Positions 11,815-28,374 of a DNA stretch of 32,000 nt are shown one piece after another. Origin of the DNA: Candidatus Auribacterota bacterium (lineage in GTDB: Bacteria; Auribacterota; UBA6266); contig JAGLRQ010000064.1 in NCBI GenBank assembly GCA_023136205.1, forward strand, positions 1 through 32,000. Reading direction: 5' to 3'. Numbering within the stretch: position 1 is the first letter of the stretch; every line of letters begins with the position of its first letter. The notes beneath the pieces were generated by a model that ran no database searches, had not been told where the DNA came from, and worked only from the letters and a program-made list of their open reading frames with translations. The position numbers were made by a program, and so were the translations under genes.

Positions 11815-12117
11815 ATGAAAACTATATCATCACTATTATTAATCATTTTGTTAGTTTCGGGATGTGCGGGGTCTTCTACTCAGGTAGTTACCGATGATAC
11901 TCGTCCAACCCTGGCATTTAAAGGTGCTCCAAGATATTCTACCCTATATATCGATGGTTTAAGAATTGGGAATACAAATGATTATAATGGTAAGCCGGAC
12001 GTGTTGATGGTTGAATCTGGGACTCATTATGTTGTAATTGAATCGAGAGATGGAAGCAAGCTTTATTCTAAAGAAATATTTGTGGGAAGCGGGTTAAAAA
12101 TTATACATCTTAAATGA
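11815..12117 (+). CDS. small lipoprotein with PEGA-like beta-sandwich
   Basis: Lipobox LVSGC. The pattern GAP..STLYIDGLRIGNT...ESGTHYVVIE resembles a PEGA domain. Its start abuts the upstream stop codon. Confidence 0.6.
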   Translation: MKTISSLLLIILLVSGCAGSSTQVVTDDTRPTLAFKGAPRYSTLYIDGLRIGNTNDYNGKPDVLMVESGTHYVVIESRDGSKLYSKEIFVGSGLKIIHLK

Positions 12118-12500
12118 TAAGGAATGCTATGAAGAGAGGGTTTTTTTTATTTTTTATTTTGAGTTATTTTGTGTTTTCCGGCTGTGCTTCTCAAATGTAT
12201 GCCTGGAAAAATTATGAATCTTCTTTATATAAATATTATAAAGATCCAACACAGAAAGAGAGATTTATAAAAAATCTGGAAAAAATAATTAAAAAATCGG
12301 AAAGGAAGGGGAAAGTTCCTCCTGGAATTTATGCCGAATATGGATATATGCTTTATGAATCACAAAGATATCCGGATGCTATTGTATATTTTCAAAAAGA
12401 AAAGAACTTGTGGCCGGAATCGCAATGTTTTATGAACAAAATGATCGAAAACGCGGAAAGAATGATGGATAATACTTTTGCAGTTGTGGTAGAAGAATAA
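12114..12500 (+). CDS. DUF4810-like lipoprotein
   Basis: Lipobox VFSGC, then WKNYESSLYKYYKDP. Assigned from memory of the CsgG/DUF4810/DUF799 gene triad. The start may instead be the ATG at 12129 (MKRGFF). The 12114 start overlaps the upstream stop in an ATGA. Confidence 0.6.
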   Translation: MIRNAMKRGFFLFFILSYFVFSGCASQMYAWKNYESSLYKYYKDPTQKERFIKNLEKIIKKSERKGKVPPGIYAEYGYMLYESQRYPDAIVYFQKEKNLWPESQCFMNKMIENAERMMDNTFAVVVEE

Positions 12501-12507
12501 GATAGGG

Positions 12508-13143
12508 ATGATAAAAATGGCAAAAAGATTTTTAATATTTGCATTATTGTTTTTTGTGAGCGGGTGTGCAACAACCGTGAAAAAAGATTATACAAAGTTT
12601 ATGTCCGCAAACCCCAGGTCTATTTTAATAGTTCCGGTTGTCAATGAAACTGTAGATGTCGATGCGCCTGATTACTTTTTATCTACCATTTCTGTGCCTG
12701 TTTCAGAGCAAGGATATTATGTTTTTCCTGTGCATATGGTAAAGAGAGTGTTGGAGGATGATGGGTTGTCAGATGCGGATTTGGTTCACAGTGCGTCAAC
12801 TGAAAAATTGTGTGAATTATTTGGATCCGATGCTGTCCTGTATATCAAAATTAAGCGTTGGGATGCTCAATATGCGTTAATTGCAACAACGGTAACGGTA
12901 GGACTAGAATATATTATAAAAGATGGGAAAACAGGGGTTGTTTTATGGCAGGAGGACTCTGTAGTGAGATATACCTCTCAAGGTGCCGGCTCCGGGAATT
13001 TGCTGGCGGATGTTATTATAGTGGCAGTGAATGCTGCGATGACTAAAGCAGCACCTAATTATATTCCACTTGCAAAACAGGCAAACGAACAGGTTTTTGT
13101 ATATCCTGGACCTGGAATTCCTCCAGGCCCTTATAAAAAATAA
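12508..13143 (+). CDS. DUF799 (GNA1162-like) lipoprotein
   Basis: Lipobox FVSGC, then RSILIVPVVNETVDVDAPDYFLSTISVPVSEQGYYVFPV. About 210 aa and in the expected position within the CsgG-like cluster. The alternative start is 12517. Confidence 0.65.
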   Translation: MIKMAKRFLIFALLFFVSGCATTVKKDYTKFMSANPRSILIVPVVNETVDVDAPDYFLSTISVPVSEQGYYVFPVHMVKRVLEDDGLSDADLVHSASTEKLCELFGSDAVLYIKIKRWDAQYALIATTVTVGLEYIIKDGKTGVVLWQEDSVVRYTSQGAGSGNLLADVIIVAVNAAMTKAAPNYIPLAKQANEQVFVYPGPGIPPGPYKK

Positions 13144-13183
13144 ATAGAAAATGCTTCGTTAAACTAAGATAGGAGTATGTAAC

Positions 13184-13765
13184 ATGAAAAAGTTGTTGTT
13201 AGTTTTTACTGCGCTGTTTCTTATGTCCGGTTTTGCGGCCGCCCAGGACGATTTTACCGAGCATTTATATGGAAAAGGGCAGGCAAGCTGGGCTGTTGCT
13301 TCTGAGAGCGATTTTGAAAATGGTTGGGCAACTCTATTCGGGGTCGGCTATGACTTCAACGACTACATAGCTCTTGAAATAGAATCAGGTTTTGTCACAT
13401 TTGATGTTGAAAATGTTGTTCTGAACAGAGGAACCGGCAAAATCGAAACAGTCCCCCTGCTTTTTAATATTGTCGCGGGATATCCATGGGAACAGTACAA
13501 GCCGTACGCGACGATTGGAATCGGCTACGCGTTTAACGACTTCAACAGCAATACTACGGGTTTAAAAGCTGATCCTAAAAATTCTATCCTCGGTAAATTT
13601 GGTGTAGGTATTGATTATTATTACGCTGATAATGTCGCAATATTTTTTGAAGGTTCCTACCTCTTGAATGCCGGCGATACTACCTTCAAATTGGATGGAA
13701 ACAGTAAAGACTACAGCAACTTAAGCACTTGGCTTATCGGTGGCGGTATTAAATTAAGATTCTAA
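13184..13765 (+). CDS. small outer-membrane beta-barrel protein, paralog B
   Basis: Signal peptide ends in GFAAA-QD. Blocks shared with 10054-10653 include TVPLLFN..GYP, KFG.G.D.Y...NVA...EG.Y and TWL.GGG.K..F. The C-terminal residue is Phe. Confidence 0.8.
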   Translation: MKKLLLVFTALFLMSGFAAAQDDFTEHLYGKGQASWAVASESDFENGWATLFGVGYDFNDYIALEIESGFVTFDVENVVLNRGTGKIETVPLLFNIVAGYPWEQYKPYATIGIGYAFNDFNSNTTGLKADPKNSILGKFGVGIDYYYADNVAIFFEGSYLLNAGDTTFKLDGNSKDYSNLSTWLIGGGIKLRF

Positions 13766-13767
13766 AA

Positions 13768-13793
13768 GAAAATAGGGAAAGTCCCAAGCGAGC
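13768..13793 (+). repeat. partial (left-arm only) copy of the REP-like hairpin element
   Basis: GAAAATAGGGAAAGTCCCAAGCGAGC matches the 5' half of the full copies that follow. Confidence 0.85.
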
Positions 13794-13796
13794 AAG

Positions 13797-13853
13797 AAAA
13801 ATAGGGAAAGTCCCAAGCGAGCGAAGCGAGTGCGTGGACTGTCCCCATTTTTC
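13797..13853 (+). repeat. REP-like hairpin element, copy 1 (terminator-like)
   Basis: Arms GGGAAAGTCC (13804-13813) and GGACTGTCCC (13836-13845) around a 22-nt GC-rich loop, then a T-run. About 49 nt are identical to copy 2. Confidence 0.9.
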
Positions 13854-13919
13854 TCATGGGAGAGATCTTATCTTCTTTTAATCATTGAAGAATGCCCGTT
13901 AATTTGTTAAATTCTCCGC

Positions 13920-15068
13920 ATGTCAAAATTTAAAAGTTTATTTTTTACGTGCATTATTTGTTTTTTGTTTTTTTCTTCTTTTCTTTTTGCCGATATTCTT
14001 TGCGGCAAAACATATCAGCAAACCCTTCGTGAATATATAACCCGGGCTAAAGGCTCGATTGTGGTTGCGATGTACTTCATTATTCTGGAGCCGGGAGGGG
14101 GTGGCCCGATAAATGAACTGGTTGATGATCTCGTAGATGCTAAAAAGCGGGGGGTTGATGTCAGGGTGATTTTGGAAGATTCAAAGTTTAAAGAAAATCG
14201 CCTTGCTTATCAAAAATTAAAAGAAAACGGTATTATTGTATATTTTGATACTCCGGAACATCTCTTACATGTAAAGGGTGTTGTTATTGATGACAGGTAT
14301 GTATTTATAGGTAGTGCCAACTGGTCAAGGGCGGCGATAGAAGATAATTATGAAGTTACATGTTTTTCGGATTCTTTGGAGGATGGCCTTGCTTTTAAAG
14401 AGTATGTTGAGGGGATCCCTTTTCAGAATAAAGATATGTTTCTGCCTTCAGTTGAAGGTGTTGCTATTTCTTCGGATTTCCTTCTTTTGCCTGAAACAGG
14501 CCGCAGGCTTCTTAAAAGCCAGGCTGTAAAGCAGTTAGATCTTTATTTGCTGTTATTCAGGATACGGCGGGAGAGCGGGGAGGCTGCTTTTGATGTTGAT
14601 TATGATGTTTTGGCTAAAGCGATGGGTTATACGGTTCGCGGGAAGTTAGGAAAATACCGTAATCAGCATCATTACTTCTATGAAAGGATACATCGCTTAT
14701 TGGTGCGTCTCAGGCGCTACGGCCTTATTGATTATAAGAAAGGGGTAGTTTCTTTAAATACTAAGGATAGCCCATCTATAATAATTCCTTTTGAATACTG
14801 GGATTATACCGGGGAGCTTTCCATGCGGGCAAAGTATATGTATCTGATTTGTCTATACGAAGCCGGCCGTTCCAGCCGGTATCCTTGCTGGTTCCGCAGT
14901 CAGAAGGATATGGAAAAACTTTACGGTATAAGTGATACTACCATTTCTTTGGGATTGCTGGAACTTGAGGAGAAAGGTATAATCGAAGTTTTTAGGGACA
15001 AGCTAACTCCTCCTGATTTTTCTGATAGGAAAGCTAATGTATATAAAATACTTGGTTTTCCCGGTTAA
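13920..15068 (+). CDS. PLD-superfamily (single HKD, Nuc-like) protein with N-terminal signal/anchor and two C-terminal winged-helix-like domains
   Basis: The HKD motif LHVKGVVIDDRYVFIGSANWS has its His codon at 14268. The N-terminus SLFFTCIICFLFFSSFLFA is hydrophobic. The C-terminal half has wHTH-like segments such as YGISDTTISLGLLELEEKGIIEV. Confidence 0.75.
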   Translation: MSKFKSLFFTCIICFLFFSSFLFADILCGKTYQQTLREYITRAKGSIVVAMYFIILEPGGGGPINELVDDLVDAKKRGVDVRVILEDSKFKENRLAYQKLKENGIIVYFDTPEHLLHVKGVVIDDRYVFIGSANWSRAAIEDNYEVTCFSDSLEDGLAFKEYVEGIPFQNKDMFLPSVEGVAISSDFLLLPETGRRLLKSQAVKQLDLYLLLFRIRRESGEAAFDVDYDVLAKAMGYTVRGKLGKYRNQHHYFYERIHRLLVRLRRYGLIDYKKGVVSLNTKDSPSIIIPFEYWDYTGELSMRAKYMYLICLYEAGRSSRYPCWFRSQKDMEKLYGISDTTISLGLLELEEKGIIEVFRDKLTPPDFSDRKANVYKILGFPG

Positions 15069-15086
15069 GGTGCCTGAGGAAATAGA

Positions 15087-15143
15087 GAAAATAGGGAAAG
15101 TCCCAAGCGAGCGAAGCGAGTGCGTGGACTGTCCCCTTTTTCT
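15087..15143 (+). repeat. REP-like hairpin element, copy 2 (terminator-like)
   Basis: Same sequence as copy 1, with arms at 15094-15103 and 15126-15135 and a T-run at 15137-15141. Confidence 0.9.
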
Positions 15144-15494
15144 TCCTAACTTTCTCGACGACAAACTCCTTCCCATCAGATAAATATCTGGTATAATTTT
15201 TTATTGATAAAGCGATTGTAGTATATCCCGCTTGAACAACCGCATTTTAAATTATCCATTAAGAAAGAAGCGCCTTTTGCGCCAGAAAAATCTCCTCTAA
15301 AAGCCCAAGGGTACCCGCAATTATTCAAAAATGTCAAAATTTTAGAAGATGGAGAAGTGTCCAATTTATGTTAATATGCTTCTATAAAATGAGTTATGTA
15401 TTATGAATAACAAGAAATCTGGATTCGCAGAACGATTTTTCGCTTGGTTATTTGAACCGGTGAATGATATTGTTGAAGATGCAACCGACTCAAA

Positions 15495-15552
15495 GAAAAT
15501 GGGGAAAGTCCCAAGCGAGCGCAGTGAGCGGGTGGACTGTCCCTTTTTTCTT
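15495..15552 (+). repeat. REP-like hairpin element, copy 3 (diverged loop)
   Basis: Arms at 15502-15511 and 15534-15543 are conserved, the loop sequence has diverged, and a T6 run follows. It lies inside the track ORF 15403-15597. Confidence 0.85.
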
Positions 15553-15632
15553 AAAGAAGAGCAGTTGCTGAAAGAAGAAGATGAGGGAAGTGGATAGGAA
15601 ATAGGTGTCTGTTATTAATTCCGAATAATATT

Positions 15633-18155
15633 ATGGCAAAAGAAGCAAAAGCTCGTATACGCATAAACAAATATCTTGAAAATGCCGGATGGTGTTTTTT
15701 CGATACGGATACCGCCAAGGCTAATATATGCCTTGAAACAAACGTAAAGATTACCGAGCAAGTTCTTACTGATCTTGGTGAAGATTTTGAGAAAACAAAA
15801 AATGGATTTACTGATTATATTCTTTTAGATGATAAAGGATTTCCTTTTGTGGTTTTAGAGGCAAAAAAAGAGGACAAAGATCCTTTAGCCGGAAAAGAAC
15901 AAGCTCGCAAATATGCCAAAAACCTTAATGTTCGTTTTGTAATTTTATCTAACGGTAACCTTCATTATTTTTGGGATATTGAAACAGGCAATCCGCATAT
16001 CATTACCGCTTTCCCTACATATGAATCATTAACGTACAAAAAATCTTTCAAGCCTAATCCGGACAATCTAGTCCGTGAGTATATTGATTCAGATTATATT
16101 GCCATTACTCAAAAACCAGATTACAAGAGCGATCCTAATTGGATAGATGAGGATAGAAGAAATGATTTTATTATTGATAATAATCTCAAATTCCTAAGAG
16201 ATTATCAGATAAACGCTGTTAAATCTTTGCAAGACGCGGTAAAAGAAAATAAAAATCGATTTCTATTTGAAATGGCAACAGGCACAGGAAAAACGCTTGT
16301 TGCAGCAGGTGTAATTAAGTTATTTTTAAGAACAGGTAATGCAAAAAGGGTGCTTTTTCTTGTTGATAGGTTAGAGTTAGAGGATCAAGCATGGAAAAAT
16401 TTTGTAAAATACCTTAAAAATGATTATAAATCTGTAATTTACAAAGAAAATCGAGGTGATTGGAAAAAAGCTGAAATTGTAGTTTCCACTGTTCAATCAT
16501 TTCTTTTTAATAACAAGTATAAAGATTTATTCTCACCAACTGATTTTGATTTGGTTATATCCGACGAAGCTCATAGGTCGATAGGCGGCAACAGCCGGGC
16601 AGTGTTTGAATATTTCACTGGTTATAAATTAGGGCTCACCGCAACGCCAAAAGATTATTTAAAAAAGATTGACGAAAAGAAATTAGCTGAGAAAGACCCG
16701 CGTAAATTAGAAAGACGTCAGTTGCTTGATACTTACAAAACCTTTGGATGCGAGGCGAGCAATCCAACATTCAGGTATACTCTTTTGGATGGAGTAAAAG
16801 ACGATTATCTCGTAAACCCTATTGTTGTAGATGCCAGAACAGATATAACAACCGAATTGCTTTCAGAAATGGGCTATTCTGTACTAATAGAAAATGAGGA
16901 AGGCGAAGAGGAAGAAAAGACTTATTTCCAAAAGGATTTTGAACGAAAATTCTACTCAGAAAAGACTAACAGGACATTGTGCCGGACATTTTTAGAAAAA
17001 GCACTAAGAGACCCGTTAACTGGCGAGATTGGCAAAAGTATTATTTTTTGCGTTAGCCAAAATCACGCTTCGAAAATCACACAGATACTTAATGAGCTGG
17101 CACATAAGGTTTATCCGGGTAAATACAAATCTGATTTTGCGGTGCAAGTAATATCCCATATTGATGGCTCCCAGCAAATGACAATTAACTTTTCAAACAA
17201 TAATCTAAATGGGCATACAATCTTTAAGGACGGCTATAATTCCAGCAAGACCCGGGTGTGCGTTACCGTAGGGATGATGACAACAGGTTATGATTGTGAG
17301 GATATTTTAAATTTATGCCTAATGCGTCCTATCTTTTCCCCTCAAAATTTTATTCAGATGAAAGGGCGGGGAACCAGAAAATATGATTTTGTTTATAGCG
17401 AAAGAAACGAGCTGGGAAAGATAGAAAAATATGTGGTTAAAAAGGAGAGGTTTAAACTTTTTGATTTCTTTGCCAATTGCGAATATTTTGAAGAAAAATT
17501 TAATTATGATGAAGTTATAGAACTGCCACCGGAAACCGGAAAAGGGCCGGGGCCGTTTCCCCCGCCGTCACCATCGTATGAATATGAAAATACGCGTCTT
17601 GACCCCTTAAAAGAAATTGCCGAGACGCCTATAGGTTTTGAAGGCATGAAAATTGACCGGAAGTTTTTTGAGAAGTTTGAAGAAGTTGTTAAAGGTAATG
17701 AATATGTTAAAGACAAAATTTATGAAGGCAAATACGAAGAAGCCGAAAGCTATATAAAAAGAGAAGTTTTTGATAAACCGGAAGAATATTTTAACCTGGA
17801 TAAATTAAGAAGGTCAGTTAAACTTGACCGCCGGCTAAGTTTGCGTGAAATATTAGAGAAGATATTTGGACGCATTAAAAAATTTAAAACAAAGGATGAT
17901 TTGCTCGAAGAAGAAATTGAAAAATTTATCTCTCTTTATCATCCCGAAAATAAGTTTATTCATATTATACGCCAGTTTATGAAGGCATATATTTTAGATA
18001 CCGAGTTGCGGGAAATTTTGAACTCTAAAGAATATGGCAGGCTTGAAACTAATCCCGGCTTTACAATGAGGGATTTAAAAGAGCTTGATGGGTGGAAAGA
18101 CCCGGTTGTTGAGTATATAAAAGATTATGTGCCATTGAATGCCTTTGCGGCTTAA
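15633..18155 (+). CDS. hsdR: Type I-like restriction enzyme R subunit (PD-(D/E)xK nuclease plus SF2 helicase), short form
   Basis: The N-terminal nuclease motif is FTDY...VVLEAKK. Helicase motif I is EMATGTGKT (16281-16295), II is SDEAH (D311 at 16563), III is LGLTATP and VI is QMKGRGTRK. It lies directly upstream of the methylase/specificity gene. Confidence 0.88.
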   Translation: MAKEAKARIRINKYLENAGWCFFDTDTAKANICLETNVKITEQVLTDLGEDFEKTKNGFTDYILLDDKGFPFVVLEAKKEDKDPLAGKEQARKYAKNLNVRFVILSNGNLHYFWDIETGNPHIITAFPTYESLTYKKSFKPNPDNLVREYIDSDYIAITQKPDYKSDPNWIDEDRRNDFIIDNNLKFLRDYQINAVKSLQDAVKENKNRFLFEMATGTGKTLVAAGVIKLFLRTGNAKRVLFLVDRLELEDQAWKNFVKYLKNDYKSVIYKENRGDWKKAEIVVSTVQSFLFNNKYKDLFSPTDFDLVISDEAHRSIGGNSRAVFEYFTGYKLGLTATPKDYLKKIDEKKLAEKDPRKLERRQLLDTYKTFGCEASNPTFRYTLLDGVKDDYLVNPIVVDARTDITTELLSEMGYSVLIENEEGEEEEKTYFQKDFERKFYSEKTNRTLCRTFLEKALRDPLTGEIGKSIIFCVSQNHASKITQILNELAHKVYPGKYKSDFAVQVISHIDGSQQMTINFSNNNLNGHTIFKDGYNSSKTRVCVTVGMMTTGYDCEDILNLCLMRPIFSPQNFIQMKGRGTRKYDFVYSERNELGKIEKYVVKKERFKLFDFFANCEYFEEKFNYDEVIELPPETGKGPGPFPPPSPSYEYENTRLDPLKEIAETPIGFEGMKIDRKFFEKFEEVVKGNEYVKDKIYEGKYEEAESYIKREVFDKPEEYFNLDKLRRSVKLDRRLSLREILEKIFGRIKKFKTKDDLLEEEIEKFISLYHPENKFIHIIRQFMKAYILDTELREILNSKEYGRLETNPGFTMRDLKELDGWKDPVVEYIKDYVPLNAFAA

Positions 18156-18169
18156 AGGAAAATTACGAT

Positions 18170-20569
18170 ATGCTAACCAACGGAACAAAAAGACGCATTG
18201 ATACAGCAAGGGATATCCTTGTCGGAAAACTCCCTGACCCCAAGACACAGGTTGAACAGATTACCATAGCTCTTATTTATAAATTTATGGACGATATGGA
18301 CAAACAGTCTGAGGAATTGGGAGGAAGACCCAAATTTTTTACCGGTGAATACAAGAAATACTCATGGAGTAAGATTTTCGATCCTCGTGTGAGTGGGCAT
18401 GAACTTGTTGGTTTATATGGCGAAGCTGTTCAGCGGATGAATCAGAATCCGAATATCCCGCAGTTATTTAGGGATATTTTTAAAAATGCTTATTTGCCGT
18501 ATCGTGATCCTGAAACCTTAAAAAGTTTTCTTAAATGTATTGGCGAGTTTGAATATGACCATAGCGAGAAATTAGGAGATGCCTTTGAGTACCTGCTTTC
18601 TGTAATGGGCTCACAAGGCGATGCCGGACAGTTTAGGACGCCCAGACATATTATTGATTTTATAGTGAAGGTGGTTGACCCAGGAAAAAACGAGACTATT
18701 CTTGATCCCGCCTGCGGTACGGCCGGATTCTTGATTTCTTCGTATAAGCATATCTTAGAAAAAAATAAAAAAGACGGCCGGGTACATTTAACTCCAGCTC
18801 AAAAGAAAAGGCTCATTGAAAACTTTTCAGGTTATGATATTTCGCCGGATATGGTGAGATTGTCATTGGTTAATATGTATCTGCACGGGTTTAAGAATCC
18901 CAAAATCTATGAGTATGATACATTAACCTCAGAGGAAAAATGGCAGGAAGTATTTGATGTAATATTAGCAAATCCGCCGTTCATGAGCCCAAAAGGCGGG
19001 ATAAGGCCGCATAAACGGTTTAGTGTGCAGGCAAAGCGTTCGGAGGTGCTTTTTGTTGATTATATTACTGAGCACTTAAATCCTAACGGCCGGGCGGGCA
19101 TTATTGTTCCCGAAGGCATTATCTTTCAGTCAGGCACTGCTTATAAGAAACTGCGCAAGATGTTAGTCGACCGTTCACTTTATGTGGTTGTATCTTTGCC
19201 CGCGGGAGTGTTTAACCCTTACTCCGGAGTTAAGACATCAATATTGATGTTGGATAAAAATTTGGCAAAAAAGACGAATAGGATTTTATTTATAAAAATC
19301 AACAATGATGGCTTTGGGTTGGGCGCACAGAGAAGAGAGGTTAAGGGAAGCGATTTGCCATTGGCTTTAGAAGTAATCACGAGATACAAGCAGAGCATTA
19401 TTGAAAATAAAGAATTTGAGTTCAGTTCTGATGAAGCGAAGCTTGCCTCTCTGGTTGAGCAAACAAAAATCGCAGAAAGTGGAGATTATAATCTTAATGG
19501 TAATCGGTATTCAGTTTCAGAAATAACTACAACAGAATATCCAGTGGTGAAATTAGAGGAAGTGGCGAAGATTATCGCAGGGCAATCGCCAGAAGGAAAA
19601 TATTATAATTCTAAAAGTAAAGGAACTCCTTTTTATCAAGGGAAAACAGATTTTGGGAATATTTATCTTGGCAAACCTAGTAAGTGGACTACACGTGTTA
19701 CTAAGGTCGCTGTTGCTAATGATATTTTGATGTCAGTCAGAGCGCCTGTTGGCCCTGTGAATATTTGTAGCGATAAAATATGTATAGGAAGAGGTCTATC
19801 TGCTATTCACGTTGGAGATAGGATTAATTATAAATATTTATTTTATCTTCTGAAATCTAAAGAAAATGATATTAAAGGCGGTGGTGGTTCTGTCTTTGAT
19901 AGCATAAGTAGAAAACAGATTGAAAATATAAAAATCCCCCTTCCCTCGCTTGAAGTGCAGGAACAGATTATTGCCGAACTGGACAGTTATCAGAAAATAA
20001 TCGAGGGCGCGTGTCAGGTTGTCGAAAACTACAAACCGCATATTGATATTAATCCTGATTGGGAAATGGTGGAGTTTAAAAAAGTTTGTAGCTTTGAATA
20101 TGGAAGTAGTTTACCTTCAAAAAATCGAAAAGGCACTAAATATCCAGTTATGGGATCAAATGGTATTGCTGGTTATCATGATGATTATATAGTAAAAGGC
20201 CCTGCGATTATTATTGGCCGTAAAGGGTCAGCCGGAGAAGTTGTATGGGTTGACTCAAATTGTTTTCCAATTGATACAACATATTATGTTGAGCTGAAAG
20301 ATAAATCATATAGTTTCAAATTTTTATATTTCGTTCTACAAGGTCTTAACTTACCACAATTAAAAGGTGGTGCAGGTATCCCTGGCTTAAACAGAAACGA
20401 TGTATATAGGATATATAAGTTGCCTTATCCGTCCGTTGATATCCAAAAAAGAATTGTTGCCCAGATCGAAAAAGAACAAAAAGCAGTTGAAGCCACAAAA
20501 GATTTAATCACGCTCTTTGAACAAAAAATAAAACAAAAAATCAGAGAGATTTGGGGTAAAGAAAAATGA
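18170..20569 (+). CDS. hsdM: fused Type I methyltransferase-specificity protein (HsdM-HsdS in one polypeptide)
   Basis: The N-terminal ~440 aa hold the HsdM_N region, SAM motif ILDPACGTAGFL and catalytic NPPF (18971-18982). The C-terminal ~350 aa hold two HsdS-type TRDs (VVKLEEVAKIIAGQSP... and MVEFKKVCSFEYGSSLP...). Each TRD is followed by a conserved helix, LPSLEVQEQIIAELD or PSVDIQKRIVAQIEKEQ. Confidence 0.88.
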   Translation: MLTNGTKRRIDTARDILVGKLPDPKTQVEQITIALIYKFMDDMDKQSEELGGRPKFFTGEYKKYSWSKIFDPRVSGHELVGLYGEAVQRMNQNPNIPQLFRDIFKNAYLPYRDPETLKSFLKCIGEFEYDHSEKLGDAFEYLLSVMGSQGDAGQFRTPRHIIDFIVKVVDPGKNETILDPACGTAGFLISSYKHILEKNKKDGRVHLTPAQKKRLIENFSGYDISPDMVRLSLVNMYLHGFKNPKIYEYDTLTSEEKWQEVFDVILANPPFMSPKGGIRPHKRFSVQAKRSEVLFVDYITEHLNPNGRAGIIVPEGIIFQSGTAYKKLRKMLVDRSLYVVVSLPAGVFNPYSGVKTSILMLDKNLAKKTNRILFIKINNDGFGLGAQRREVKGSDLPLALEVITRYKQSIIENKEFEFSSDEAKLASLVEQTKIAESGDYNLNGNRYSVSEITTTEYPVVKLEEVAKIIAGQSPEGKYYNSKSKGTPFYQGKTDFGNIYLGKPSKWTTRVTKVAVANDILMSVRAPVGPVNICSDKICIGRGLSAIHVGDRINYKYLFYLLKSKENDIKGGGGSVFDSISRKQIENIKIPLPSLEVQEQIIAELDSYQKIIEGACQVVENYKPHIDINPDWEMVEFKKVCSFEYGSSLPSKNRKGTKYPVMGSNGIAGYHDDYIVKGPAIIIGRKGSAGEVVWVDSNCFPIDTTYYVELKDKSYSFKFLYFVLQGLNLPQLKGGAGIPGLNRNDVYRIYKLPYPSVDIQKRIVAQIEKEQKAVEATKDLITLFEQKIKQKIREIWGKEK

Positions 20570-21432
20570 CTACTGAGGAAATAGATCAAAGAATTAAAGG
20601 GTTAAGAGATTTAAATTTAAAAAATGAAATGTCCAAAGCTATATTTGAAGAGGTCTGGGATTTAATGAAGATTGGATATAAATGTATACACTTCCCGGGC
20701 TATCATAAATATGTATATCGAGCCAGGAAAAATGAAAAAACAAAAAACAAATTTACGTTTTTTAAACATGTAAAGAAAATATGGTGCCGCAATCCTGAGG
20801 ATGTATTGGATTTTGGACGTGTACATTGGCCAAAACATCCTGTTTTTTATTGTAGCGGTTCATTGAAAACTGCAATATTAGAAATAAAGCCGGATTATCA
20901 CGGCTTAGTTACTGTTATGAGATGTCGGAGGAAAAACTCGCATAAGATTGAATCTGTTGCTTTCGGATTTCCTGATAGAGCAAAATTTATAGACGGAAAA
21001 GGCAAGATAATTAATTGGGGTGAGTATAAAGAAGTAAAAATCGGGTTAAGTAAAGGCCAGGCTCAAAAGAATAATAAAATTGATAGATTTTTGAATGAAG
21101 TCTATCGGGATGAAGATAAAAATATAGACTCGTACGGAGATGATAAATATAAGATTACTGCAGCGATTGCAAAAATGTACTTTGATAATCCTGCTAAGAA
21201 TTCACATAAACTGGATTGTATATGTTATCCCAGCGTTAGTGAAGTGAAAGGGGCTACTAATTATGCTTTTACCAAAAGGGTTGCGGATACGATTTTAGAG
21301 CCGGACAGTTTTTATGTTTTTGAGATATGTCCGGGTGAGAAGTTTGGAAAGTTTGCGCTTAAACTAATTTGTTTTTCTATGAATGTTGATATGACAGGAA
21401 AAATTGCGTGGGAAAATATAATTATAAAATAA
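20566..21432 (+). CDS. RES-domain protein (predicted NAD+-targeting toxin-type enzyme)
   Basis: RES signature read by eye: YRARKNE, then FGRVHWPKHPVFYCSGSLKTAILEI (R85, E106), then CICYPSVSEVKGATNYAF (S223). Its ATG overlaps the hsdMS stop in an ATGA. Confidence 0.7.
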   Translation: MTTEEIDQRIKGLRDLNLKNEMSKAIFEEVWDLMKIGYKCIHFPGYHKYVYRARKNEKTKNKFTFFKHVKKIWCRNPEDVLDFGRVHWPKHPVFYCSGSLKTAILEIKPDYHGLVTVMRCRRKNSHKIESVAFGFPDRAKFIDGKGKIINWGEYKEVKIGLSKGQAQKNNKIDRFLNEVYRDEDKNIDSYGDDKYKITAAIAKMYFDNPAKNSHKLDCICYPSVSEVKGATNYAFTKRVADTILEPDSFYVFEICPGEKFGKFALKLICFSMNVDMTGKIAWENIIIK

Positions 21433-21565: not shown

Positions 21566-22762
21566 ATGATAAAATTGAATCTCGTAAGAGAAATCCGAGA
21601 ACTAAAGAACCAGCTCTCTTATTCGAAAAAATATAGTTTCTTTTTTGGCGCAGGCACATCATGTGCACTTGGCATTCCTAATATAGCTACTTTAACAACA
21701 GAGGTGGAAAAGGCTCTAAAAGATAATTCATTAAATTATTTTAAAAAAATAAAAGAAGATCTAACATCTACATACCCCGATAAAATCATAAATATCGAAG
21801 ATATTCTTAATCAGTTACGCCAAATCAGGTCAATCACTGGGGAAAAAGATGATAAAAGTTATCTGGATATAAGTGGAAAATCAGCAACAGAACTTGATAG
21901 TGAAATTTGCAAAAAAATATATGCTGTCATTAGCACCAGTGAAACAACGGCGGATCTTTCTAATACCAAGAAGTTTTTTGCTTGGTTGAATATGCTAAAT
22001 AGGGATTACTCAAAAGAAATATTTACATCAAATTATGATTTAATTATTGAAAAAGCTCTGGAAGAAATAAAAACTCCATACTTTGATGGATTTGTAGGGT
22101 CATATGAACCTTTCTTTTGGCAGGAAAGTATAGAAAGATTCGTTGATAAGTCTGATTTAACACAAAATTGGATCCGGCTATGGAAGGTTCATGGCTCATT
22201 AAGCTGGTTCTGGAAAAAAAATAGCGAATCAGGTTCTCATAATATCATCCGTGTCGGCATAATCTCAGATATTAAAAATATTGATAATGAACTGGTTATC
22301 TATCCATCAAAAGAAAAATATGATTCTTCAAAGAAGCAGCCGTTTGTCGCTTATTTTGATCGATTAAAAAATGTCCTTTTGAAGGGAGAACTCCTTTTTA
22401 TCTTTACGGGGTATTCATTTTCTGACCAGCATATCAATGAGATTGCATTTAATTCTCTTCGACAAAATAATCGATTATTTATTTTAGTGTTTTTTTATCA
22501 GGACTCTGAAGTGGAAGAATTATTTCGAGTATCTTCATCATACCTAAATTTGACAGTATTTGGCCCTACGAAGGCAATTATAAATGGAACATTAGGTGAG
22601 TGGGAATATAACGAAGACGATTTAAAACCAAACGAGAAGTCAGATAGCTATTGGGATACCGAAAATAAGCAATTGATACTCGGGGATTTTAATCAGCTAA
22701 TTAATTTTCTAATTACAAACTCTGGGAAAAAAGAAAACATAGAGGCAATAGCAAATGGATAG
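21566..22762 (+). CDS. SIR2-family NADase, partner of HerA in the SIR2-HerA defence system
   Basis: SIR2_2-type motifs FFFGAGTSCALGIP, FTSNYDLIIE and WKVHGSLSW (His codon at 22190). A strong SD AAGGAGA precedes it, and it overlaps the downstream HerA gene by 8 nt. Confidence 0.85.
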   Translation: MIKLNLVREIRELKNQLSYSKKYSFFFGAGTSCALGIPNIATLTTEVEKALKDNSLNYFKKIKEDLTSTYPDKIINIEDILNQLRQIRSITGEKDDKSYLDISGKSATELDSEICKKIYAVISTSETTADLSNTKKFFAWLNMLNRDYSKEIFTSNYDLIIEKALEEIKTPYFDGFVGSYEPFFWQESIERFVDKSDLTQNWIRLWKVHGSLSWFWKKNSESGSHNIIRVGIISDIKNIDNELVIYPSKEKYDSSKKQPFVAYFDRLKNVLLKGELLFIFTGYSFSDQHINEIAFNSLRQNNRLFILVFFYQDSEVEELFRVSSSYLNLTVFGPTKAIINGTLGEWEYNEDDLKPNEKSDSYWDTENKQLILGDFNQLINFLITNSGKKENIEAIANG

Positions 22763-24539
22763 TGACATTACCTACCTTGGGAAAATAATACGGGTTGATT
22801 CGAGTACTGTTGAAGTTGAAGTTTCAGATGATATCCCTTCCGCTGCACCAATTATAAACGGTCGTTTATATAAAATTGGACAAATTGGTACTTTTGTAAA
22901 AATGCCAATGGGAAATATTACAACCTATGGAATAGTATCTTCTGTTAGCAATACTCCAGGGAAACCAGATGACAATCAGGCTAGGCAGATTTTTGGATCA
23001 CGTTTTCTTAGCGTTCAGCTTGTCGGTGAAAAAATTGGGGATGATGATTTTGAGAAAGGCATAGGGACGTACCCTACTATTAATGATGCAGTTCATATTG
23101 TAGTTGAAAAGGACTTGTTTAATATATATGGGGAAAAAGATACTGGCTCTATAGAAATAGGAAAGCACTCCTCTTCTGATAATTTATCTGTATGTGTAGA
23201 TATTCATAAACTCATATTGCGTCATTGCGCGATATTAGGTTCTACTGGAAGTGGAAAATCAAATACAACTGTTAGTATTCTTAAGGCAATATTAAACAAT
23301 TATCTTGGTTCAAGAGTTATTTTAGTTGATCCACACGGTGAATATGCTTCAGCATTTCCAGATGCGAAAGTTTATAAAATCAATGATTCTTCCGATCCGT
23401 TGTATATTCCTTTTTGGTTGATGAATTTTGATGAATTGGCATTTTTTCTTGTCGGAGCTAAACCAACTGATGATCAAAGGCCAGAGTATCGATTATTAAG
23501 GGAATGGATAACGGGTTATAAAAAAGAAAATTATCAACTCAAATCAGGTGATGTAAATCGAGACTTTATTACTGCCGATTCGCCAATTCCTTTTAATGCT
23601 AGAAAACTTTGGCATGACATGAACTGGTGGCTGAATGCTACTTTCTCAGAATCTACAAAAGACAAACAAACAAAAGATAATGCGCAATTACAGAAGGATG
23701 AAGATGGCAATCCCAAGAATGGTAATTATGACGAATTAAGACAAGCAGAATTTAAACCCTATCCAATGGGGAGTAATGCACCATATAAATCAAAACACCA
23801 AGATTTTTATTCATATGAAAAAAAGCTTCTATCACGGCTCAAAGATTCTCGGTTTGATTTTATGTTTCATCCTGGAGATTACAAAGATAAATCTTCCTTG
23901 AAGGATTTGCATAATTTGTTAAATGACTGGATAGGAAGTGATAGTAAATTGGTAATACTTGACCTTGGCGGAATCCCATTTGAGGTTTTAGATATTGCAA
24001 TCGGACTAATTACAAGATTTGTGTATGACAGTATGTTTTGGGGGCGGAATGAATCTTACACGGGAAGAAATAGACCTCTTTTGCTTGCTTATGAAGAAGC
24101 TCACACTTATTTGAACAAGAATGATAATAACAGTTATTCAAAAAACGCGGTTGAACGAATTTTTAAAGAAGGTCGTAAATTTGGTGTTGGTGCGTTAGTT
24201 ATATCGCAAAGACCTTCTGAAATTTCAGAAACCATTCTGGCTCAAATTGGAACATTCATAGCTTTGCGATTAACAAATTCAGGAGATCAGTCTATTGTTA
24301 AATCTTCATCACCTGACAATCTAAATAGCTTGATCGATTTATTACCTTCTTTGAGAATTGGTGAGGCCGTTATTGTTGGTGAAGCGATCAAAATACCTTC
24401 TAGAATTAGAGTAAAACTTAATAATCCAAGACCAACGAGTGATGACCCTAAACTTATAGAGTGCTGGAGTAAAACACATTCCACCTCTGATGATAAGTAC
24501 AAATCGGTAGTAACCAAAATAAGAGAACAAAGGAGATAA
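22755..24539 (+). CDS. herA: HerA/FtsK-like (DUF87) hexameric ATPase of the SIR2-HerA defence system
   Basis: 594 aa with an N-terminal HAS-barrel-like region. Walker A is LGSTGSGKSNT (from 23238) and Walker B is PLLLAYEEAH. A C-terminal GRKFGVGALVISQRPS motif is also present. Confidence 0.85.
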   Translation: MDSDITYLGKIIRVDSSTVEVEVSDDIPSAAPIINGRLYKIGQIGTFVKMPMGNITTYGIVSSVSNTPGKPDDNQARQIFGSRFLSVQLVGEKIGDDDFEKGIGTYPTINDAVHIVVEKDLFNIYGEKDTGSIEIGKHSSSDNLSVCVDIHKLILRHCAILGSTGSGKSNTTVSILKAILNNYLGSRVILVDPHGEYASAFPDAKVYKINDSSDPLYIPFWLMNFDELAFFLVGAKPTDDQRPEYRLLREWITGYKKENYQLKSGDVNRDFITADSPIPFNARKLWHDMNWWLNATFSESTKDKQTKDNAQLQKDEDGNPKNGNYDELRQAEFKPYPMGSNAPYKSKHQDFYSYEKKLLSRLKDSRFDFMFHPGDYKDKSSLKDLHNLLNDWIGSDSKLVILDLGGIPFEVLDIAIGLITRFVYDSMFWGRNESYTGRNRPLLLAYEEAHTYLNKNDNNSYSKNAVERIFKEGRKFGVGALVISQRPSEISETILAQIGTFIALRLTNSGDQSIVKSSSPDNLNSLIDLLPSLRIGEAVIVGEAIKIPSRIRVKLNNPRPTSDDPKLIECWSKTHSTSDDKYKSVVTKIREQRR

Positions 24540-24541
24540 TA

Positions 24542-24754
24542 ATGGACAGAAACAACATTGATTCTTCAATGATTCGGAGCATTGGCTATGACGCAAACAG
24601 CTCTACTCTTGAAATAGAATTCAATAGTGGTGCAATTTGGCAGTATTTTGATTTTCCAGAATCATCTTGGTGTGAGTTCAATACCTCAGATTCTAAAGGA
24701 AAGTTTTTTCTTCGAGAAATAAAAAAGCAATATTCTGAATCGCAAGTTGGATGA
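24542..24754 (+). CDS. KTSC-domain small protein
   Basis: 70 aa. IRSIGYDANSSTLEIEFNSGAIWQYFDFPESSW matches the KTSC domain pattern. SD AAGGAG is present and the start lies 2 nt after the HerA stop. Confidence 0.7.
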   Translation: MDRNNIDSSMIRSIGYDANSSTLEIEFNSGAIWQYFDFPESSWCEFNTSDSKGKFFLREIKKQYSESQVG

Positions 24755-24804: not shown

Positions 24805-25017
24805 CGGATGAGTTTGGTTAGGTGGATAGTTGGGGATAAGTACATTGTGTTTATCCTGTTAATATAGAGTAATAAGAACATTTGATTTATACATGAATTG
24901 GTAAACATATAAAATGGATGACCTTAGAAAACAAGAGGGAGTTAAGCCCAGCTGCACAAACCAGTGCTACAGTTTGCCACACACTTGTTTAGTCCATCTA
25001 TCAGGATTATAATAACG

Positions 25018-25482
25018 ATGACACAAGAAATGACAGAACTCAAAATATTCTTTGATTTGCCAAAGACTTTTGAGATACAGAACATTAAGCCCCTTATGGG
25101 GCTGACGGGATTGTATTTTATTTTCAATGGAAAGACAAAAATTCAATATCCTTTCAAGAAATCGCGACTGCTATACATTGGAATGAGCGAGAAAAAAACA
25201 AACAGCATAGGGAGCCGTCTAGCAGGTCATTTTGAAGGAAAAAGTAAAAACGTTGGAATTGTCAACTATAGAAAAACTAAACAGTTGTTTTTTACCTACA
25301 TCAATTTCGAGATGCTTCGCAAATTCTGGAACCACAGAATAGAAGACCTTGAAAGCTACTTCATTCTGGACTTTGTTGAGAAGTACGGAGTTTATCCCAT
25401 TTGTAACAATAAGTCTGGTTACGAAATATTGAACAAAAAACTAAACGCCAATTTTATTATAGATTGGTTATATTTTGAATAA
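25018..25482 (+). CDS. GIY-YIG nuclease-superfamily protein
   Basis: GLYFIF ... LLYIGMS ... SRLAGH ... EDLESYFILDF ... PICNNKSG fits the GIY / YIG / Arg / Glu / Asn order. The start is uncertain: the track uses GTG 24964, I prefer ATG 25018, and neither has an SD. Confidence 0.65.
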   Translation: MTQEMTELKIFFDLPKTFEIQNIKPLMGLTGLYFIFNGKTKIQYPFKKSRLLYIGMSEKKTNSIGSRLAGHFEGKSKNVGIVNYRKTKQLFFTYINFEMLRKFWNHRIEDLESYFILDFVEKYGVYPICNNKSGYEILNKKLNANFIIDWLYFE

Positions 25483-25493
25483 ACACTTAAGTT

Positions 25494-25703
25494 ATGAATA
25501 AAAAAATAAAAAGTGGTAAAGATGTCATTGATGAGTTCTTCTCAGAAATTCTAAATATAGAAGACGTTGACCAAAAGACAGTGGAAAAGCTGGTTGAATT
25601 GTATAAAGAGAATAACCTAACTGACAGAAAGATTCAGAACGCATTAGAGGAACTGAAACAAGCAGAACTTAATTCAAAAGCGCGAAACGATGGCAAAGAT
25701 TAA
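25494..25703 (+). CDS. 69-aa charged, predicted all-helical protein of unknown function
   Basis: It starts 11 nt after the GIY-YIG stop and overlaps the downstream ATPase start by 14 nt, implying co-translation. No motif recognised. Confidence 0.5.
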   Translation: MNKKIKSGKDVIDEFFSEILNIEDVDQKTVEKLVELYKENNLTDRKIQNALEELKQAELNSKARNDGKD

Positions 25704-28098
25704 ATCAATCAATATAAGCGGAATAAGAGGTGTTAAAGACCTTTTGACACTTGACATCAACAAGAAATCCATTTTGATTTATGGCGACAATGGAACAGGA
25801 AAGAGTTCTCTGACTGATGCCTTTGAATGGTTATTTTACGATCGTATTGGTCATTTATCCAATGAAGAAATTGGAAGAAAAGGTCGAGACGCCTTAAGAA
25901 ACATTTTCGTTCCAGGCAATGAAGATGGTTATATCGAAATCAAGTTTGATAATAACAAACTGGACATAAAAAAGTCAATCGACAGTTCGATAAGTGCTTC
26001 TACTTCTAACATATCAGATGAATTCAATGACTTTATTGCCGCCTCACAATCCGAAAATCTTATTCTTCGCTACCGTGACTTAGTGCAATTTATTATTGCG
26101 AGCAAAACCGAGAAACTAACAAAACTGCAAAACATTATTGGCTTTTCAGAGGTCGCTGATGTCAGGAGCTTACTGAAGAAGAATGCCGGACGAATTGCCC
26201 GCAATATCAAATCTTCTAATTATGACAACCAAAAGAATGTGAAGCAATCAATAATACTTGAAAACCTTGGGAGAAATGCCCATTCAGATGAGCAACTTTT
26301 TGAAGGAGCGAATGAACTCATTAAGCCATTGAAGCTTGGTATCGAAATTAAATCTCGTGAGGATATAAAGAAAGTTTTAAAGAAAATTGAGACCAAAGAG
26401 GACAACGCTTTACTTGAACAAATCAACTTTTTCACAAGAATGTGGGAGGTCTTATCAGAAGTTGTTGGAAATGTTGACAATATTCATGAAAGCTACAAAT
26501 CATATCACACCATTGGCAAAGAGTTGAAAAAAGACCCAGAGAAGATTAAGAAATTGCAGCTGCTTGCTCTTTTGAAAGAAGGCCAGTCAGTTCTTAAGAA
26601 TGATGTTGTGCAGGACAACTATTGCCCACTTTGTCAACAAGAAAAGAGCAAGGTTCAACTAATTCAAGAGTTGAACAAAAGAATTGAGGAATTGGAACAA
26701 CTTGCTGAAGAGAAGAACAAATTAGATGAGCAGGCAGAAGAACTTGAACAATTGATTCAGCCAAACATTAACATGATAGACAGTTTGCTAAGGGAGAAGC
26801 TATTTAAGAAGGATAAATACGAAAAATTGAAAAGTCAGATTGCAGAAGTCAAGAAATCATTAAACAGCTTTCTTTATGAGCTTAAAAAAGGTTTATCGGT
26901 TGCTTTTGCAGAGCCAGGCAAAATCAAGATTGATAAAAACGAATTTTATATAATTGTCAAGCAATCACAAGATACCGCAAAAATTCTTACGGAAAATCAA
27001 TCATCAAACATAAAGTTCCAGATTTATACTAAGTTGTCCCAAGCGGTAACTGCTTATGAAGAATATCAAAGAATAGAAAAAGAGCAAGGCATCCTAAGCA
27101 GGCAGCAAGTTACGTTTGAAGGGCTTTATGCTGATTTCATAAAAAGACAAGAAGAAGCCCTCAACGTATTCCTGACAATGTTCTCTCAAGACATCGATGA
27201 CTATTATACAACTATGAACCCCAACGAGAGAGTTGAGGACATAAAACTTGTGCCAATCAAAAAAGATGGTGATTTGGTAGGAATTACTATTGAATGCAGC
27301 TTTTTTGATGAGGCTAAAACTTTTCCAATTGCTTATTTGAGCGAAAGTCATCTCAATTGTCTTGGACTTTCGTTCTTTTTAGCTTCTGTCAAAGCATTTA
27401 ACAAGGAGAACGAATTTTTCATATTGGATGATATTATATCCAGTTATGACAGGTCTCACCGAGCAAGATTTGCTAAGCTGTTGACCGAAAAATTCTCTGA
27501 CTACCAAGTTATTCTTTTAACCCATGAACAAGAGTTCTTTGAACTGGTGTCCAGTGATGTAAAGAACAAAGGATGGTCAATTAAGAATTTCAAGTGGACA
27601 AAAAATAGTGGTGCAGGTGTAGAAAAAGGAACGGTTAAAATCAAAGAACGAATTCTTAAGAAATTTAAAGAGAAGAATATAGATGGTCTTGGTAATGATA
27701 TCAGAGTTTATACGGAGAAGGTTATGAAAGAAGTCGCATTTAATATAGAAGCCCCTGTAGCATTCCGATATAATGCACTTAATGAGAAGCGAATGGCCCC
27801 AGAATTATTGAATGCTGTTCAAAGTCGAATTTCAAAAAAAGGAAATGGGCTAAAAGAGAAGGCCAACATTACAAGGGTGAAAGGTATGCCTATGTTCATT
27901 GGAAATACGACTTCTCACGACAACGAATTCAATGAGAGTATTGAGGACTTGGAAGTGATGTGGGAAAATATTGAGAACATGATCCGCACATTTTACTGTA
28001 ACAGTTGTAGGAAGTTTATGTCAGTTAAGTATTTCGACAATGTAGAGAGTAAAATCAGGTGTGGATGTGGTAATCTGACCTATGATTGGGAAAAATGA
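25690..28098 (+). CDS. Rad50/SbcC-like ABC ATPase with coiled-coil zinc hook and RloC/PrrC-like C-terminal region plus zinc ribbon
   Basis: Walker A YGDNGTGKSS starts at 25783. A long heptad-rich insert carries CPLC (C312-C315, 26623-26634). Walker B/D-loop is FFILDDIISSYD (about 27424) and the H-loop is LLTHEQEF. The C-terminus has R672-x3-E676, then TSH743D, then C770xxC773...C791xC793. Confidence 0.75.
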   Translation: MAKIKSINISGIRGVKDLLTLDINKKSILIYGDNGTGKSSLTDAFEWLFYDRIGHLSNEEIGRKGRDALRNIFVPGNEDGYIEIKFDNNKLDIKKSIDSSISASTSNISDEFNDFIAASQSENLILRYRDLVQFIIASKTEKLTKLQNIIGFSEVADVRSLLKKNAGRIARNIKSSNYDNQKNVKQSIILENLGRNAHSDEQLFEGANELIKPLKLGIEIKSREDIKKVLKKIETKEDNALLEQINFFTRMWEVLSEVVGNVDNIHESYKSYHTIGKELKKDPEKIKKLQLLALLKEGQSVLKNDVVQDNYCPLCQQEKSKVQLIQELNKRIEELEQLAEEKNKLDEQAEELEQLIQPNINMIDSLLREKLFKKDKYEKLKSQIAEVKKSLNSFLYELKKGLSVAFAEPGKIKIDKNEFYIIVKQSQDTAKILTENQSSNIKFQIYTKLSQAVTAYEEYQRIEKEQGILSRQQVTFEGLYADFIKRQEEALNVFLTMFSQDIDDYYTTMNPNERVEDIKLVPIKKDGDLVGITIECSFFDEAKTFPIAYLSESHLNCLGLSFFLASVKAFNKENEFFILDDIISSYDRSHRARFAKLLTEKFSDYQVILLTHEQEFFELVSSDVKNKGWSIKNFKWTKNSGAGVEKGTVKIKERILKKFKEKNIDGLGNDIRVYTEKVMKEVAFNIEAPVAFRYNALNEKRMAPELLNAVQSRISKKGNGLKEKANITRVKGMPMFIGNTTSHDNEFNESIEDLEVMWENIENMIRTFYCNSCRKFMSVKYFDNVESKIRCGCGNLTYDWEK

Positions 28099-28226
28099 AA
28101 TGGAGTCTAATTAGTATAATTTGAACACTTCCCATATTGTTGAAAAATTCCCTTACTCTCCTTCCCATTGTAACCACCTTTCTTCCGTGCTAAAATATTT
28201 GAATGAAACAGGCTGAAAAAATGAAT

Positions 28227-28374
28227 CCCCCCAGATTTGCATTAGCAAATTTAACAGGGGGACTAGCAAAGATGGAGGGGAACTGGTGGAATGATGCCCC
28301 TAGATTTGTATTAGCAAATCTAGCAGGGGGACTTTATCCCCCTAGATTTTGCAAATCTGACCAGGGGGACTAGC
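28227..28374 (+). repeat. three tandem copies of a ~41-nt imperfect palindrome (CCCCC-TAGATTTG...CAAATCTA-n-GGGGGAC)
   Basis: Copies lie at 28227-28267, 28297-28333 and 28338-28374, and each folds into a hairpin of 12-13 bp. In copy 3 the G-run (28364-28368) is also the only SD-like sequence for the GTG at 28375. Confidence 0.85.

Follow-up and report, generated by a model that had tools for sequence, protein, structure and literature searches.

We describe a predicted family of RES-domain proteins of about 285 amino acids (aa) that resemble the antiphage aRES proteins and lack their PF18870 domain; this family appears to be new, and in one of its subclades the RES gene appears to have joined a Type I-like restriction-modification (R-M) cassette, hsdR-hsdMS-RES, as third cistron. 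The cassette was found in a stretch of 32,000 nucleotides (nt) from a Candidatus Auribacterota bacterium (GenBank assembly GCA_023136205.1, contig JAGLRQ010000064.1, positions 1 to 32,000 of the forward strand), which was analysed as a whole and is referred to as the window. Its RES gene (20566–21432, plus strand) starts with ATG, encodes 288 aa and corresponds to NCBI record MCK4947535.1, named 'RES domain-containing protein'; the start codon is backed by homologues that align from residue 1. The ATG (20566–20568) and the TGA stop codon of hsdMS (20567–20569; ...GGT AAA GAA AAA TGA) form an exact ATGA overlap at 20566–20569, and a Shine-Dalgarno-like GGGG run (20553–20556) stands 10 nt 5' of the ATG. 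An initial annotation, made from the sequence letters alone, had described this open reading frame (ORF), its overlap with hsdMS and its place as third gene of an R-M operon, and all three points hold. Judging from this junction, RES is very probably translated after hsdMS via coupling. A programmed frameshift fusing HsdMS to RES was ruled out: a TAA stands in the RES frame three codons before the ATG, the A-run contains no canonical slippery heptamer in the zero frame, and it is missing from the corresponding junctions of two related loci (L001 and L002, see below). A promoter and terminator scan of the locus gave output no better than shuffled sequence.

The R...E...S signature that had been proposed for this protein, with its YRAR, VFYCSG..A..E and YPSV contexts, was recovered by direct count (Y51-R52-A53-R54, G84-R85, V93-F94-Y95-C96-S97-G98, T102-A103-I104-L105-E106 and Y221-P222-S223-V224) and is conserved in the family. 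In an alignment of 91 family members R52, R85, Y95 and E106 are invariant, and R54, G84, Y195, Y221, P222, S223 and N232 are each at least 90% conserved. R85 (codon 20818–20820, plus strand as for all codons given here), E106 in the TAILE helix (20881–20883) and S223 in the YPS motif (Y221-P222-S223, 21226–21234) are the eponymous R, E and S. In RES domains, Tyr and Asn take the place of the Ser and Glu of R-S-E ADP-ribosyltransferases (ARTs; Iyer et al., PMC9503650), and we infer by position that Y95 (VFYCS, 20848–20850) replaces the ART Ser and N232 (21259–21261) the catalytic ART Glu. Pfam RES (PF08808) matched the window protein with 31.2 bits (gathering score 23.2; E 2.7e-7), as the initial annotation had anticipated. 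Because the Pfam alignment spans only a short part of the protein, independent support for its identity was sought. Eighty-six of the 91 family members matched Pfam RES individually (best E 1.4e-11), and alignments of relatives span profile positions 25–140. PADLOC and NCBIfam contained no model matching the RES protein. A PDB sequence search with the single protein returned zero matches, and a PDB HMMER search with the 91-sequence profile (E ≤ 10) returned no RES toxin but chance matches (E 0.46 and 1.2).

AlphaFold2 modelling with the seven closest sequences only gave an unusable model (predicted local distance difference test score, pLDDT, 35), whereas the 91-sequence alignment yielded a confident one (pLDDT 93.3, predicted template modelling score 0.90). 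When this model was compared with the PDB using Foldseek, ranks 1–4 were all RES toxins, and lower ranks were noise: P. putida Res (6gw6_A; E 9.5e-4, probability 1.00, template modelling (TM) score 0.60 on the target and 0.33 on the query), P. putida Xre-RES (9r35_A; E 1.1e-3), NatT (8qnl_C; E 1.3e-2) and ParT (6d0i_C; E 0.12). The fold expected from the initial annotation, with ParT among its relatives, was thus borne out by prediction. Compared with the RES toxins of 145–250 aa, the model has an additional N-terminal helical hairpin (H3-14, H23-35), an extra strand bearing YRAR, some 80 inserted residues (about 125–210) that include three helices, and a C-terminal beta-hairpin.

Stronger sequence kinship was found with proteins of aRES architecture. 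aRES proteins are stand-alone antiphage RES proteins (Osterman et al., Sorek laboratory, January 2026 preprint; bioRxiv 10.64898/2026.01.28.702374), which defend E. coli against phages as single genes, turning NAD+ into nicotinamide and ADP-ribose (ADPR)-1''-phosphate. They are defined by PF18870 (HEPN/RES-NTD1) plus RES and a length of 300–600 aa, and their genes are described as non-operonic (bioRxiv 10.64898/2026.01.28.702374). We used P0162 (416 aa; PF18870 at 24–161, RES at 215–363) as a proxy for this architecture (PF18870+RES); it is not among the experimentally tested aRES proteins. The family profile matched P0162 at E 1.9e-13, and hhalign aligned the family with it over 179 columns (probability 98.8%, E 7e-17; window residues 29–239 versus P0162 166–360), a region that takes in YRAR with its strand, GR..FY...TA..E, the insert of helices, YPS and the Asn; R85 and the YPS motif of the window protein pair with the GR and YPS of P0162. 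PF18870 itself had no match in the window protein (E ≤ 0.1) or in any of the 91 relatives (E ≤ 0.01), and the idea that the N-terminal hairpin is a PF18870 remnant was supported by neither hmmscan nor hhalign. Taken together, Pfam, AlphaFold2, Foldseek and hhalign identify the product of the third cistron as an extended RES-domain enzyme of ART fold with an intact catalytic signature, whose activity is predicted.

How large the family is became apparent when 1.84 billion cluster representatives (50% identity) were searched exhaustively with HMMER, using a profile of the seven closest sequences as query; word-indexed protein searches had yielded only 7, 16 and 48 relatives. At E ≤ 1e-3 the HMMER search recovered 1,212 representatives, 261 of which also passed E ≤ 1e-10; most are 260–320 aa long and matched end to end, and some family members carry C-terminal fusions (TPR, Cu_amine_oxidN1-like, DUF5663). 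Linkage to hsd genes was seen in three of about 16 distinct contexts, all three in one subclade (at least 70% identity), and in none of about 13 other contexts, which hold relatives at 19–42% identity. The recurrence of hsd linkage that the initial annotation had called for among RES homologues holds for three diverged loci but is confined to the subclade of at least 70% identity. Relatives of 42% identity are cargo of conjugative elements with the gene order RadC ... X ... RES - TraE/TrbI/TraC, where X is, in L008 and L018, a Ser/Thr kinase separated from RES by 5–14 nt and, in L011 and L017, a large AAA/HEAT protein separated by 264 nt. At 33–38% identity, RES follows a 1,952-aa Cap4-nuclease/STAND protein (L019) or an AIPR abortive-infection gene (L021), or stands alone (L023). 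Relatives of 19–27% identity are found alone in chromosomes (L012, L014), in Tn7-like cargo with TIR and PIF1 genes (L024), beside a TIR-TPR giant (L025), and on plasmids of Listeria (beside ToxN/AbiQ), Paraburkholderia, Alteromonas and Hymenobacter (beside Fic-VbhA). No relatives were found in phage records or viral contigs, and a literature search found no paper joining 'RES domain' with 'type I restriction'. Judged by these neighbourhoods, the antitoxin-free RES family of about 285 aa is usually solitary, resides in defence islands and mobile elements, and can evidently do without a partner.

Two further observations concern the relatives. In the Omnitrophota-type conjugative element (L008, L011, L017, L018) the position of RES before TraE is fixed and the preceding gene is swapped (the kinase has 412 aa), so that RES has the look of a fixed effector whose upstream partner can be exchanged. 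The RES clade repeatedly has RadC-like JAB genes in its vicinity (L001, 10843–11559; L002, 8119/8200–8916; L017, 1997–2701; L018, 5717–6436); those of the 42%-identity clade are located inside the conjugative element, two genes upstream of RES. This recurrence may reflect a functional association or simply mark mobile elements.

The cassette of the window comprises all Type I R-M components, namely HsdR, an N6-adenine methyltransferase and HsdS with two target-recognition domains (TRDs), although the fusion of M and S is atypical. hsdR (15633–18155, plus strand) encodes a Type I-like restriction subunit with an N-terminal PD-(D/E)xK nuclease and a superfamily 2 helicase, which matched Pfam ResIII (2e-39) and HSDR_N/HSDR_N_2 as well as PADLOC REase_I (2e-61), with the NCBIfam EcoAI/FtnUII-like model below cutoff. 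hsdMS (18170–20569, plus strand) encodes the 799-aa fusion of methyltransferase and specificity subunit, with matches to Pfam N6_Mtase (3.7e-55) and two Methylase_S stretches and to PADLOC MTase_I (6e-97) and Specificity_I; the motifs NPPF and DPACGTAGFL were read directly in its translation. The closest RES relatives (70–72% identity) come from two metagenomic contig families, L001 and L002–L007, and hsdR-hsdMS-RES occurs in identical order and orientation in these and in the window. Nucleotide homology (blastn) between the window and L001/L002 runs from 15633, the hsdR start, to 21433, the RES stop, and is patchy over the specificity domains. The flanks of the cassette differ: in the window a SIR2-HerA pair begins 134 nt after RES, whereas L001 and L002 have a RadC gene that shares 25 nt with the 3' end of RES. 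hsdMS and RES overlap by 4 nt in the window and by 11 nt in L001, and are 1 nt apart in L002, with TGGGG upstream in each.

Synonymous divergence (dS) exceeds 1 in every pair of the three hsd-linked loci, and since synonymous sites are saturated, the loci are not recent copies. Amino acid identity among them is 89–93% for HsdR, 87–91% for the M part of HsdMS and 70–77% for RES; the S part of the window protein is 29–33% identical to those of L001 and L002, compared with the far more similar M part, and specificities have therefore been swapped. The common, about 90% identical hsdR indicates that all hsd-linked loci descend from one ancestor, and the sequence comparisons identify hsdR-hsdMS-RES as a unit that is co-inherited. 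RES is under purifying selection (dN/dS 0.10–0.14 among the three loci), and its non-synonymous divergence (dN 0.14–0.19) is about three times that of hsdR (0.04–0.06; 0.04–0.085 for hsdR and the methylase part together). Within the window protein, divergence is highest over the first 45 residues, which are 53% identical to both L001 and L002. The fast non-synonymous change and divergent N-terminus would be compatible with an arms-race surface.

No Xre, HTH or DUF2384 ORF adjoins the RES gene in a Pfam scan of the ORFs of the window, and no Xre/DUF2384 partner was found among the gene calls and annotations of the related loci examined, so that the missing antitoxin noted initially was borne out throughout. 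A search for an RNA (type III-like) antitoxin gave no Rfam match and no tandem-repeat array next to the RES gene. Two protein candidates were rejected: small ORFs at 15037–15597 have no Pfam match and are products of an intergenic repeat, and an HTH_17 gene upstream of hsdR in L002 is without counterpart in the window. The initial annotation had taken the absent antitoxin to imply control by the R-M system in the manner of PrrC, which is not supported in that form: relatives are antitoxin-free everywhere examined and mostly solitary, and aRES proteins defend as single genes, so that a PrrC-like explanation of the absence is unneeded. Both the RES assignment and the absent antitoxin are thereby explained by known biology.

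On balance, and with moderate confidence, we favour RES as a phage-triggered, NAD+-depleting abortive-infection effector of aRES type that would silence itself, and whose coupling to hsdMS would provide co-expression and joint mobility of a two-layer defence. RES would be made together with the R-M enzymes and kept inactive by structural additions of its own that canonical RES toxins of 145–190 aa lack (the helical hairpin at the N-terminus and the roughly 80-residue insertion), until a phage-derived cue turns it on. The active enzyme would then drain NAD+, probably through phosphorolysis yielding nicotinamide and ADPR-1''-phosphate, and arrest the infected cell; restriction would act first and abortive infection second, with the coupling to hsdMS securing co-expression and co-transfer of RES. 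NAD+ chemistry, phage trigger and self-inhibition are what we infer for the window protein. Several points weigh against this interpretation. The PF08808 alignment of the window protein is restricted to 26 residues (aa 84–109), and even the best structural match to a RES toxin is modest in E value and TM score. ParT, a RES-family toxin, ADP-ribosylates a protein (Prs) rather than degrading NAD+, and because of this NAD+ chemistry is not guaranteed for the window protein. Self-inhibition by the extra elements is conjecture. Several RES relatives lie directly behind large sensor-like proteins, at the short distances noted above for the kinase, and RES proteins of this type might therefore generally take orders from an upstream partner. 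Finally, cassette borders and overlapping junction have been kept across saturated divergence, which may mean more than co-expression.

The last two points bear on the proposal of the initial annotation that RES is a restriction-linked backup effector like PrrC. Here RES would bind the HsdR/HsdMS complex and be held inactive by it, anti-restriction proteins or other disturbance would free it, and NAD+ loss would back up defeated restriction. The position of RES as third cistron with an ATGA overlap agrees with such a guard, as does the preservation of the trio and its tight junctions in three loci at saturated dS, where flanks and TRDs change and cassette borders are exact; partner control would also be compatible with the close relatives that are encoded in operons behind other large proteins, such as the kinase. 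There are also precedents, as PrrC/EcoprrI has a suicide-type effector gene inside the hsd operon, suggesting layered defence, and at least 16 HEPN clades are linked to R-M systems (PMC3710099). We nevertheless consider the guard unlikely: hsd linkage exists only at 70% identity or above, relatives at 42%, 33–38% and 19–27% are unlinked and many of them solitary, aRES relatives act alone, and no independent second origin of hsd linkage was found among the family contexts examined. What stands of the proposal is the residence of RES in a conserved cassette; partner independence across the family and hsd linkage confined to the closest subclade count against its dependence on the R-M system. A variant by analogy, in which the Type I-like complex would be the sensor, RES would be docked on HsdMS or HsdR and freed or activated by anti-restriction attack, with NAD+ phosphorolysis in place of the tRNA cleavage of PrrC, and RES would serve as interchangeable effector for kinase, STAND and AIPR sensors, appears to us similarly doubtful.

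It is less probable again that RES is an ART with a macromolecular target, as ParT is for Prs, or an addiction or stabilisation toxin of a mobile R-M cassette. The fold is that of the ART superfamily, the protein-modifying ParT is among the fold matches (6d0i_C), and the family is frequent on plasmids, conjugative elements and transposon cargo. Yet the closest sequence kin is the aRES-architecture core and not ParT, which was matched by Foldseek at an E value of 0.12, no antitoxin was found that could form an addiction module, and the neighbourhoods are defence islands. Least probable, in our estimation, is chance adjacency, in which an independent single-gene defence beside hsdMS was inherited from the ancestor of three related lineages of metagenome-assembled genomes and the coupling is unselected: the shared, about 90% identical hsdR points to one such ancestor, defence genes cluster anyway and the family is autonomous elsewhere, but despite saturated synonymous sites the genes have retained their order and a junction that overlaps or spans 1 nt, and homology ends at the RES stop with downstream genes exchanged, a pattern that speaks for a unit that is selected or moves as one.

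Housekeeping genes (tig, clpP, clpX, lon, serA-like, purA) occupy the left third of the window, which from about 14 kb on is a defence island of lower GC content. Directly downstream of RES lie SIR2 (21566–22762; PADLOC SIR2, 3.5e-129) and HerA (22755–24539; PADLOC HerA, 5.9e-155), which overlap by 8 nt and are followed by a KTSC-domain ORF (24542–24754). With this complete SIR2-HerA pair beside RES, the island therefore contains two predicted NAD+-depleting effectors of different chemistries. This matters because RES-type damage, unlike that of the SIR2 type, cannot be repaired by phage NARP1 (bioRxiv 10.64898/2026.01.28.702374). Further downstream are a GIY-YIG-like ORF with a weak match (24964–25482), a 69-aa ORF (25494–25703) and an SMC/LmuB-like ATPase of 802 aa whose C-terminal region is rich in Cys (25690–28098; PADLOC LmuB, 5e-26), and the region 24964–28098 may encode an ATPase-nuclease defence module, either Lamassu-like or of another, uncharacterised kind. 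The LmuB-like gene is closely followed by a short intergenic repeat that has internal dyad symmetry (28225–28349), with 40-nt, 88% identical copies at 28225 and 28294 and a partial third at 28336. The R-M cassette is preceded by a gene for a PLD-nuclease-like protein with C-terminal HTH (13920–15068; PLDc_2, 3e-22, and HTH_36). This gene is also found before the cassette in L002 (858–2042, 54% aa identity) and not in L001; the HTH_17 gene of L002, which encodes 57 aa and has no counterpart in the window, lies between it and hsdR. Another intergenic repeat of about 59 nt with the core GGGAAAGTCCCAAGCGAGCG is present in four copies where none is expected by chance (including 13775–13823, 15086–15144 and 15494–15552). 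Its copies bracket the PLD-HTH gene and stand just upstream of hsdR, and they yield spurious small ORFs sharing the peptide KxGKVPSERSExVDCPxFL; the repeat may be an element resembling repetitive extragenic palindromes or miniature inverted-repeat transposable elements (REP/MITE-like), or an island boundary marker. In L001, downstream of RES-RadC (11721–18387), there are an nSTAND_NTPase5 giant (1,290 aa), an FRG-domain protein and a UvrD helicase. FRG is another ART-clade NAD+ enzyme family (PMC9503650), and a further NAD+-linked conflict system is predicted in the same island.

Stand-alone RES NADases were shown to be antiphage only in 2026, under a definition that demands PF18870 and 300–600 aa. 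The locus described here points to a much larger, unexamined set of short RES proteins of about 1,200 clusters that lack PF18870, and whose relatives examined here are without antitoxin and located in defence islands, conjugative elements, Tn7-like cargo and plasmids. If these short proteins are active, estimates of NAD+-depleting immunity would rise, and how a RES enzyme of about 285 aa stays silent without an antitoxin would become a question. As a clear-cut example that lends itself to testing, the hsdR-hsdMS-RES cassette joins restriction to a predicted abortive-infection effector.

Three known systems provide the comparison. With the Xre-RES toxin-antitoxin systems (P. putida Res-Xre 6GW6, MbcTA, ParST, NatRT) the window protein shares Pfam family, fold and R/E/S signature, and the characterised Xre-RES toxins act by NAD+-directed chemistry. 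In contrast to them, the window protein and its examined relatives are without an Xre/DUF2384 antitoxin, and its 288 aa make it about twice as long as the canonical toxins of about 145–190 aa (matched PDB chains, 144–250 aa), with the N-terminal helical hairpin and the large insertion as additions. Physical masking by a Type Ic R-M complex is documented for the PrrC anticodon nuclease, and the window RES gene likewise is an effector gene within an hsd operon. The analogy is positional only: the window encodes a RES/ART enzyme, whereas PrrC is a HEPN RNase with an ABC-ATPase domain; RES stands at the 3' end after a fused hsdMS, whereas PrrC is encoded between hsd genes; and most relatives of the window protein are not hsd-linked. 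The likeness to aRES extends to the antitoxin-free state, a homologous extended RES core, conserved catalytic residues and the residence of the family in defence islands. Unlike aRES, the window protein is without PF18870 and has about 28 residues before the aligned core, compared with about 165 in P0162; its length is below the published range, and its gene overlaps hsdMS by 4 nt and is thus operonic, whereas aRES genes are described as non-operonic. By sequence, the window protein is a shorter relative of proteins with aRES architecture and not an aRES protein by the published definition.

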